Sequence record: PV691511.1
Reading direction: 5' to 3' (one strand)
From: Escherichia phage WPEC2
DNA: 64,000 nucleotides
The position numbers and the translations under genes are program-made. A model generated the notes under the pieces. That model was given only the letters and a program-made list of their open reading frames with translations, was not told where the DNA came from and searched no databases. Positions within the stretch are counted from its first letter, which is position 1; each line of letters starts with the position of its first letter. Below are positions 48,803 through 49,162 of this stretch, one piece after another.

Positions 48803-48839
48803 TCTTCCTCCTGTTCGGTATTATTCACCTGTGAGACAC

Positions 48840-48869
48840 AATGTAACACAAGCTTTGTGAGTTTGTCAA
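48840..48869 (-). promoter_or_regulatory. candidate sigma70-like promoter
   Basis: Minus-strand TTGACA (48864-48869), 17-18-nt spacer, TTACAT/TACATT; upstream of the 48802 start. Confidence 0.45.
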
Positions 48870-48899
48870 GGATCTAATTACATTCTACAGAAGAAGAGG

Positions 48900-49110
48900 G
48901 TTAATAACTATAGGAATAGTCTTACTATAGGTGCAATACTAGTTAAGACTTAGATTGATAGGTAAGACTTATCTTAAACAGATAATTGATAGGTGAATCA
49001 GCATTGACTTTTTCAAAAAAATATGGTACCCTAAACATATGTTTACGAGCGATAGCGAGTAGTAGATTTCTATATAATAATGTTTCATGTTACTCACGAT
49101 AGTGAGGTAT
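48900..49110. repeat. AT-rich intergenic region with short direct repeats (iteron-like)
   Basis: TAAGACTTA x2, TTGATAGGT x2, ACTATAGG x2, CGATAG(C/T)GAG x2 within about 200 bp of a 360-bp non-coding gap. Confidence 0.5.
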
Positions 49111-49162
49111 GAAACGTAAGTGAAGGTAGATAAACTATGATCATCTATCTACCATCTATTAA

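Follow-up and report, generated by a model that had tools for sequence, protein, structure and literature searches.

The 64,000-nucleotide stretch of Escherichia phage WPEC2 analyzed here (PV691511.1; hereafter the window) displays a 360-bp gap between two minus-strand genes (48803–49162), and within this gap we describe a module composed of a predicted plus-strand promoter followed by a structured leader. WPEC2 is a phAPEC8-like Escherichia coli myophage (Phapecoctavirus, Stephanstirmvirinae; genomes of about 150 kb), and a 2-kb query around the gap matches Escherichia phages WPEC1, WPEC4 and WPEC6 with 100% identity and about 60 phAPEC8-like phages with 98–99%. The minus strand carries small, densely packed genes from 45.7 kb onward to the window end, and between 45700 and 63900 the gap is the sole stretch longer than 136 nt that lacks a minus-strand open reading frame (ORF) of at least 45 aa, a second ORF-free stretch of 180 nt (63721–63900) being clipped by the limit of the ORF scan. 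The GC content of the gap is 32.8% as compared to 39.0% for the window, which places it in the lowest 0.6% of 360-bp segments. The initial annotation had described the gap as the only long intergenic region of the minus-strand block, AT-rich, with iteron-like repeats and a candidate promoter for the downstream gene, and had suggested an origin of replication or a regulator-binding hub. The gap is real, and it is both as isolated and as AT-rich as claimed; what had been overlooked is its conserved part, a predicted plus-strand promoter with a structured leader that runs against the flanking genes.

A sensitive DNA search with the gap returned full-length matches only inside the genus. In phiWec190-type phages the match is limited to 48947–49153 (about 83% identity) and in phi92-type phages to 49000–49096 (79% identity), stopping short of the flanking genes in both cases, and the core conserved across genera extends approximately from 49000 to 49120. 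On the plus strand this core reads TTGACT, 17 nt, TGgTACCCT (49004–49032), 13 nt, CGAGCGATAGCGAG (49046–49059) and then a longer hairpin. The first part is a predicted, near-consensus sigma-70 promoter with an extended -10 (TTGACT-17-TGgTACCCT), antisense to both flanking genes, which combines a -35 hexamer, a spacer within 17 ± 1 nt, the TGn extension and residues T1, A2 and T6 of the -10. In 17 of 17 distinct copies of the module the -35 matches at least 4 of 6 positions (5 or 6 of 6 in 14 copies), the spacer measures 17–18 nt but is free in sequence, and TGn and TACCCT never change. Judged from the alignment, such a fixed geometry around a free spacer is what one expects of a promoter that works. 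The transcription start is predicted at an A, the seventh nucleotide after the -10 (49039, plus strand), a position set by promoter geometry and occupied by a purine in 14 of the 17 members. Nine nucleotides upstream of the -35, TTGATAGGT (48986–48994, plus strand) contains an ATnGG motif that is kept 9–10 nt upstream of the -35 in all sequences of this genomic location (copy A, see below) and of the bacterial islands that share the module (alignment columns 8–13). The antisense orientation of the promoter is the same in five lineages, represented by ASO2A, phiWec190, Citrobacter phage Tr1, phi92, where the corresponding gap lies between gp024 and gp023, and Klebsiella phage phi1_175008. Literature searches returned no transcriptome of these phages.

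The predicted transcript would start with a small hairpin, hereafter the box (49043–49062, plus strand; UUA-CGAGC-GAUA-GCGAG-UAG), which begins 4–10 nt after the predicted +1 among the copies when the start is set at the seventh nucleotide after the -10. The same minimum-energy fold was obtained with 8 of 8 copies tested and consists of an outer stem, a C-G pair, a 2x2 internal loop of tandem G.A/A.G pairs, a G-C and a C-G pair, and the loop. In the alignment of 17 copies the inner part (CGAGC/GCGAG) is invariant, the loop is GAA, GCA, GAUA, GAAA, GUAA, GGGA or GAAU, and A-U, U-A, C-G and G-U replace one another at the three outer pairs. Accordingly, 82% of the alignment cells are paired, as compared to 28–46% when the partners are slid, and the covariation score is reached by 0 of 500 shuffles. 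The many G.U pairs of the stem are C.A mismatches on the other strand, so that the hairpin belongs to the strand transcribed from the promoter and is more likely formed by RNA than by DNA. The box is single-copy in the window, and no complementary target with up to three mismatches was found there.

The longer hairpin follows at 49080–49117 (plus strand). It carries the CAUGUUA motif, the only other invariant block of the copy-A sequences (TGT of CATGTTA is invariant in nine sequences, islands included), and an apical insertion, CUCAC-GAUA-GUGAG. A 132-nt RNA starting at 49039 folds better than shuffled sequences (z = -2.6); consensus folding of whole copy-A RNAs suffered from a poor automatic alignment and recovered the box hairpin alone. 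We also observed a 17-nt repeat, TTACGAGCGATAGCGAG at 49043–49059 and TTACTCACGATAGTGAG at 49090–49106, the second of which looks like a duplicated box whose G.A pairs have been turned into Watson-Crick pairs (the CUCAC-GAUA-GUGAG insertion). This duplicate is restricted to Phapecoctavirus and, with one mismatch, phiWec190.

The module is not confined to the gap. A profile of the core detects exactly three copies in the complete Phapecoctavirus genome DIJ07P1 and one in the window, where neither pattern search nor nhmmer yielded a second one. A pattern scan of IMG/VR added three genomes, one phi92-like, one phiWec190-like and one Klebsiella-phage-like, with three copies apiece, and phi92 and Tr1 each have a second core match elsewhere, in the same orientation as its neighboring genes. 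Copy A is the 360-bp gap itself; copy B is found ahead of small genes, after which come genes for a helicase-like protein, NrdD and NrdG; and in three lineages copy C was located within a large AT-rich divergent region, 1.3–3.7 kb upstream of the tRNA array and on its strand. By synteny, then, the promoter-leader module appears as three paralogous copies at the same genome positions throughout Stephanstirmvirinae, with copies B and C placed at the head of what would be a replication/nucleotide-metabolism operon and of the tRNA gene array, respectively. What the three copies have in common is a single hairpin of 20–26 nt, the second hairpin being confined to copy A and the islands. Rfam gave no match at gathering score in the window, none with an E-value up to 10 in 48700–49300 and none in the island leader, while a tRNA/tmRNA search of the window returned nothing and a literature search by sequence (TGCTACCCT, CGAGCGAAGCGAG and GCGAAGC combined with phage) retrieved unrelated primers only. 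The module is thus a new family of a known kind, that is promoter-linked leader RNAs or phage antisense RNAs, and its unusual aspect is a distribution that, on sequence comparison, is shared by lytic phages and chromosomal islands. Separately, a weak RyhB-like Rfam match was seen after the tRNA array of DIJ07P1 (L021:43190-43244; 27.5 bits against a gathering score of 55, E = 0.037) and is probably due to chance. We also observed that copy A lies 0.1–2.4 kb from the record end in several deposited genomes (ESCO25, JLBYU50, ZCKP1 and phiWec190), which may reflect arbitrary linearization or hint at physical termini close by.

A scan of bacterial genomes returned 120 hits, mostly chance matches as the database size predicts, and only those with the TG/-35 signature were kept. 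The full signature is present in Citrobacter sp. OP27, in a Scandinavium metagenome-assembled genome (MAG) and in a Buttiauxella MAG, which match one IMG/VR contig. These integrative island loci (L083, Citrobacter sp. OP27, CP191518.1 784001-792000; L080; L163; L041) share a layout made of an integrase gene, the module, the second hairpin, about 1 kb devoid of ORFs, small genes (one Endonuclease-VII-like) and a gene for a DUF5906 protein, after which contig L041 additionally carries a resolvase and an Eco29kI restriction-modification system. In our reading of the alignment, the stem of the island second hairpin differs from the phage versions by compensatory changes. No island protein matched the phage genome, the 45-nt module alone of the island leader matched the phage collection, the island had no match in complete E. 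coli genomes, and no NCBIfam name was obtained for the island proteins. It is possible that the island is a phage satellite or a defence island. Another IMG/VR match (L048) was set aside, as it resembles a plain terminator. In addition, an environmental phage contig (L022:2033-2161) and about 25 similar ones from IMG/VR carry ...TATACCCTATCCCCCCCAACGAGCGAAGCGAGTGGG... twice, facing outward and separated by about 100 bp, in a divergent region between leftward genes and terminase/portal genes; the terminase is closest to those of Pelagibacter phages HTVC023P and HTVC027P. The box of these contigs and its place after a -10-like element match the enterobacterial module, without a TTGACA-type -35. 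This look-alike is possibly one family-level chance match; its occurrence at divergent promoters of HTVC023P-type marine phages also hints that the signal could be far more widespread.

Besides the module, the gap contains the signals of its two neighbors. The promoter proposed by the initial annotation for the downstream gene is present on the minus strand (48869–48840) as a predicted sigma-70-like site, TTGACA-18-TGtTACATT, with a TG-extended TACATT (10/12 plus TG in a consensus scan), and in phiWec190 an equivalent promoter-like site is readable at the same place. It is followed by a Shine-Dalgarno GGAGG read from the sequence (48807–48811, minus strand). The downstream gene (48587–48802, minus strand), the first of the next transcription unit, encodes a 71 aa protein of unknown function (phrog_16110, E 1.8e-41) that is annotated in ASO2A, and the upstream gene (49163–49372, minus strand), which closes the preceding unit and converges with the plus-strand promoter, encodes a 69 aa protein with two hydrophobic segments (phrog_24123, E 4e-46); both scores are strong and both PHROG families are of unknown function. 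Directly after the upstream gene lies a hairpin, GGTAGATA/TATCTACC (49125–49153), annotated in ASO2A as a rho-independent terminator; no U-run follows it on either strand. By eye, TGTGAG can be read twice within 48830–48860 (GTGAGACAC...CTTTGTGAG), and a palindrome, CACAAGCTTTGTG, overlaps the spacer and the -10 of the minus-strand promoter; the TGTGAG pair or the palindrome could be an operator. Farther away, we noticed that the two segments that meet at 37536/37537 of the window are not neighbors in any related record. Against DIJ07P1, positions 1–37536 are collinear on the plus strand and 37537–64000 on the minus strand, and of 68 related phage records, those with 100% identity elsewhere among them, none covers a 1.5-kb query spanning the junction in a single place. 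The junction, which coincides with a GC-skew switch between divergent gene blocks, reflects either an inversion carried by the source genome or a join made in assembly.

The repeats on which the initial annotation had built were all found where it placed them: ACTATAGG at 48907 and 48924, TAAGACTTA at 48944 and 48963, TTGATAGGT at 48955 and 48986, which together occupy 48907–48994 between the two back-to-back promoters, and the CGATAG(C/T)GAG pair, CGATAGCGAG at 49050 and CGATAGTGAG at 49097. Such words are no commoner than chance (P about 0.05–0.11). The gap has 6 repeated 8-mers as compared to 2.1 ± 1.8 in dinucleotide shuffles (P = 0.05), its longest exact repeat is 10 nt (P = 0.11), and about 11–14% of the real 360-bp segments of the phage match its repeat content. 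All are two-copy words of 8–10 nt (13–17 nt with mismatches) at irregular spacing, and each CGATAG(C/T)GAG copy sits inside a plus-strand hairpin, the second one in the apical insertion of the longer hairpin, so that this pair is not an iteron. Neither are the words conserved in related phages, a point on which the earlier proposal had been made to depend: phiWec190 retains only TTGATAGG, in two copies; phi92, Tr1 and the Klebsiella phage retain no repeat; and the promoter-proximal GATAGG is the only part of a repeat word that survives outside the genus.

Taking the anatomy, conservation, copy number, orientation and covariation described above as a starting point, we infer promoter activity, start site, RNA length and all of the functions considered from here on. 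We consider it fairly probable that the gap is the boundary of two early transcription units with two back-to-back promoters, one of which produces an antisense structured RNA. The conserved core would be a structured non-coding RNA gene or, at the least, a unit of antisense transcription. The minus-strand promoter (48869–48840) would drive the downstream genes, while the plus-strand promoter (49004–49032), a stand-alone site of host type, would face the 3' end of the upstream gene. Unmodified host RNA polymerase would initiate at the module promoters, and in the gap a non-coding RNA would be transcribed from about 49039, with the 20-nt hairpin first and the second conserved hairpin after it. 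The leader hairpin is expected to act in cis, on the transcript or on the elongating polymerase. That it is read by the polymerase itself or by some component of the host is suggested by the invariant inner stem, by its presence in elements that share no protein and by the nature of the transcripts, since in three of the four kinds, namely the tRNA array, the 1-kb leader of the islands and the RNA of copy A, most of the length would not be translated, which leaves them open to Rho. Because these three hold long untranslated stretches, the likeliest role of the hairpin would be protection from premature termination (Rho-dependent or intrinsic) or from 5'-end-dependent decay. With no gene downstream, copy A would provide antisense RNA and convergent transcription, the latter shielding the downstream unit against transcription that reads through from the early operon upstream. 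A bolder version, which we advance tentatively and hold to be doubtful, is that the invariant tandem-G.A hairpin is a new protein-independent RNA signal, akin to the put RNAs of HK022 in logic though not in form, that reprograms host RNA polymerase or recruits a conserved host factor where long untranslated transcripts begin, common to lytic Stephanstirmvirinae and to islands that could be satellites mimicking their helper.

Several observations weigh against the reading of the gap as an early-unit boundary with an antisense RNA. The promoter, the start site and the RNA itself are all predicted. As a -10, TACCCT is unusual, its center being C-rich, and its invariance hints at something past ordinary sigma-70 recognition. 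The 17 sequences used for the covariation are paralogues and orthologues and are thus non-independent; the copies being related, covariation amounts to support rather than proof. On the plus strand no U-run follows any copy-A hairpin, which leaves the 3' end of the copy-A RNA undefined, i.e. the RNA may be short, long or Rho-terminated. Moreover, the linker between the -10 and the box (11–16 nt, from TACCCT to the box) shows a tendency to be palindromic across the predicted start, with a summed energy that beats 99.7% of shuffles. The palindromes read AAACAT/ATGTTT at 49033–49045 and ACCC-CGAA-GGGT, ACCT-GAA-AGGT or AACC-CCAA-GGTT in other copies, often with a GAA loop; their individual energies are small and 11 of the 17 copies show none. 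An RNA that starts at +1 would not contain them, and the RNA model offers no explanation for their presence. Finally, GNA triloops closed by C-G are a hallmark of very stable DNA mini-hairpins, and by this analogy the C-G-closed GNA triloops of the box may allow a role in single-stranded DNA.

These last points are those on which a transcription-primed origin could be built. The promoter would supply a primer or an R-loop, stable hairpins of the displaced strand (mini-hairpins of the GCGAAGC type) would keep the AT-rich DNA open, the three copies would be three origins, and the islands would copy the site in order to be replicated by the phage replisome. The match of the triloops to DNA mini-hairpins and the palindromes that overlap the predicted start and would be missing from an RNA both fit this explanation; so do the AT-richness of the gap, the very AT-rich DNA with repeated TAACTAA words that follows the module in copy A of Klebsiella phage and phi92 and in copy C of Phapecoctavirus, and the position of the island module upstream of a DUF5906 protein, a domain that we take to be linked to primase/helicase proteins of mobile elements. 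It is nevertheless quite unlikely, as the frequent G.U (G.T in DNA) pairs of the covarying stem suit RNA better than DNA, and copies B and C occupy exactly the places where one would look for operon promoters. The iteron-type origin of the initial annotation is rejected: at least three direct repeats of about 17–22 bp at regular spacing would define it, and the gap offers only irregular two-copy words that are at chance level and unconserved. In addition, DnaA and IHF consensus sites occur at background frequency, there is no GC-skew inflection at 49 kb and no initiator gene is adjacent, while the AT-rich unwinding region that such origins call for is present (32.8% GC) but is typical of promoter regions too. 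The chance-level, unconserved repeats, the site frequencies, the GC skew and the lack of a neighboring initiator gene count against a transcription-primed origin as well. What stands of the earlier interpretation is the regulatory nature of the gap, with the promoter of the downstream gene in place, and the position of the repeats between back-to-back promoters would fit the "regulator-binding hub" that it had put forward as an alternative.

That alternative, in which the repeats within 48870–49003 form an operator region bound by a phage or host regulator that balances both promoters, is compatible with the antisense-RNA boundary that we favor and would add to it, but is itself unlikely. The location of the repeats between divergent promoters, the ATnGG motif that precedes the -35 by 9–10 nt in every copy-A and island sequence and the occurrence of TTGATAGG twice in both Phapecoctavirus and phiWec190 speak for it; set against these are a repeat content not above chance, the loss of ACTATAGG and TAAGACTTA outside the genus and the lack of an identified regulator. 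An ordinary spacer, consisting of the upstream-gene terminator and the downstream-gene promoter only, with a silent or relic plus-strand promoter and a module that is mainly a recombination cassette of the PeSL type, would account for the terminator-like hairpin and the minus-strand promoter, and repeated promoter/stem-loop cassettes are indeed known in T4-type phages (PMC4122927). We regard it as very unlikely, considering that across genera no other part of the gap is as conserved as the plus-strand module, which exceeds the flanking genes as well, that the full promoter geometry is present in 17 of 17 copies, that the three copies occupy fixed syntenic positions instead of being scattered beside variable ORFs, and that the PeSL stem-loop is upstream of its promoter, unlike that of the module. 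Hardly credible, lastly, is a small protein gene in the gap. A mechanical ORF, phAPEC8_0059 (48969–49097, minus strand; 42 aa from GTG, 39 aa from ATG), is annotated in phAPEC8, ASO2A and a Klebsiella phage, and its predicted peptide is hydrophobic. It lacks a good ribosome-binding site, halts after two codons in phiWec190, runs in a different frame across the conserved box in phi92 and is not kept in frame in the islands, and the conservation of the gap is at the nucleotide level with base-pair covariation. Since the ORF is unconserved we treated the gap as non-coding, and the GenBank entries for it are probably spurious. Plus-strand coding potential was not found in copy A either, where the ORFs reach at most 64 aa and overlap supported minus-strand genes; one of them (49137–49331) was rejected, as it overlaps a supported gene and is cut to 22 codons in phiWec190.

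If the box acts on polymerase or on RNA decay, it would be a compact 20-nt part, and in that case it could also account for how a lytic phage keeps long untranslated transcripts alive. Previously nothing was known of transcription control in the phAPEC8/phi92 group, members of which are used or proposed for phage therapy, and the three co-conserved promoter-leader modules, at a predicted early-region antisense RNA, a tRNA array and a replication operon, provide a concrete handle on it. The module in islands that share no phage protein would point to a host-recognized signal or to satellite-helper mimicry. For annotation purposes, the gap should not be called an origin.

Among the systems to which the module can be compared, lambda-type nut sites consist of boxA and boxB, and N proteins read the boxB loop. 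Like nut, the module has a short conserved RNA hairpin with a G...A loop that would occur near the beginning of transcripts from more than one promoter. It differs in that the loop varies between copies of one genome (GAUA or GCA), in that no N-like gene has been identified and in the absence of boxA, GCTCTT, CGCTCTTA and the rrn boxA all being missing from both strands of the gap. Stabilizer hairpins at the 5' end of transcripts, e.g. in the ompA leader, need structure but no particular sequence. The module too would place a stem-loop within a few nucleotides of its predicted 5' end; in contrast, its inner stem with the tandem G.A pairs is unchanged across all 17 copies, and since a plain stabilizer would tolerate change, this conservation points to specific recognition. 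Transcription-primed phage origins such as T4 oriF and oriG or the T7 primary origin combine a promoter with easily unwound AT-rich DNA. With these the module shares the order of promoter and AT-rich DNA and the presence of several sites per genome, while it departs from them by the many G.U pairs of its covarying stem.

Closer in architecture, the PeSL cassettes of T4-type phages are repeated, conserved intergenic units in which a sigma-70-like early promoter is preceded by a stem-loop; their copies are numerous and mobile and occur in hyperplastic regions beside variable ORFs (PMC4122927). The module is likewise a repeated intergenic unit of promoter and stem-loop, but its hairpin is downstream of the promoter and would be transcribed, its copies occupy three fixed positions and one of them has no downstream gene. 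The put RNAs of HK022 (putL and putR) act in cis from a position immediately after early phage promoters, and each genome has several copies related in sequence; they are about 70 nt long, with two stem-loops and a triplex, and bind host RNA polymerase without any phage protein, suppressing Rho-dependent and intrinsic termination (PMC9378689). The common part of the module, a single 20-26-nt hairpin with tandem G.A pairs, is smaller than the 70-nt, two-stem-loop put RNA, sequence similarity is not established, and a 5' stabilizer would be a simpler alternative to put-like antitermination. The likeness lies in arrangement: as in put, the module has an early-promoter-proximal position at the 5' end of the predicted transcript and several copies per genome, and it is found also in elements that share no protein. 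By analogy, put RNA would be the nearest precedent for the module in logic.

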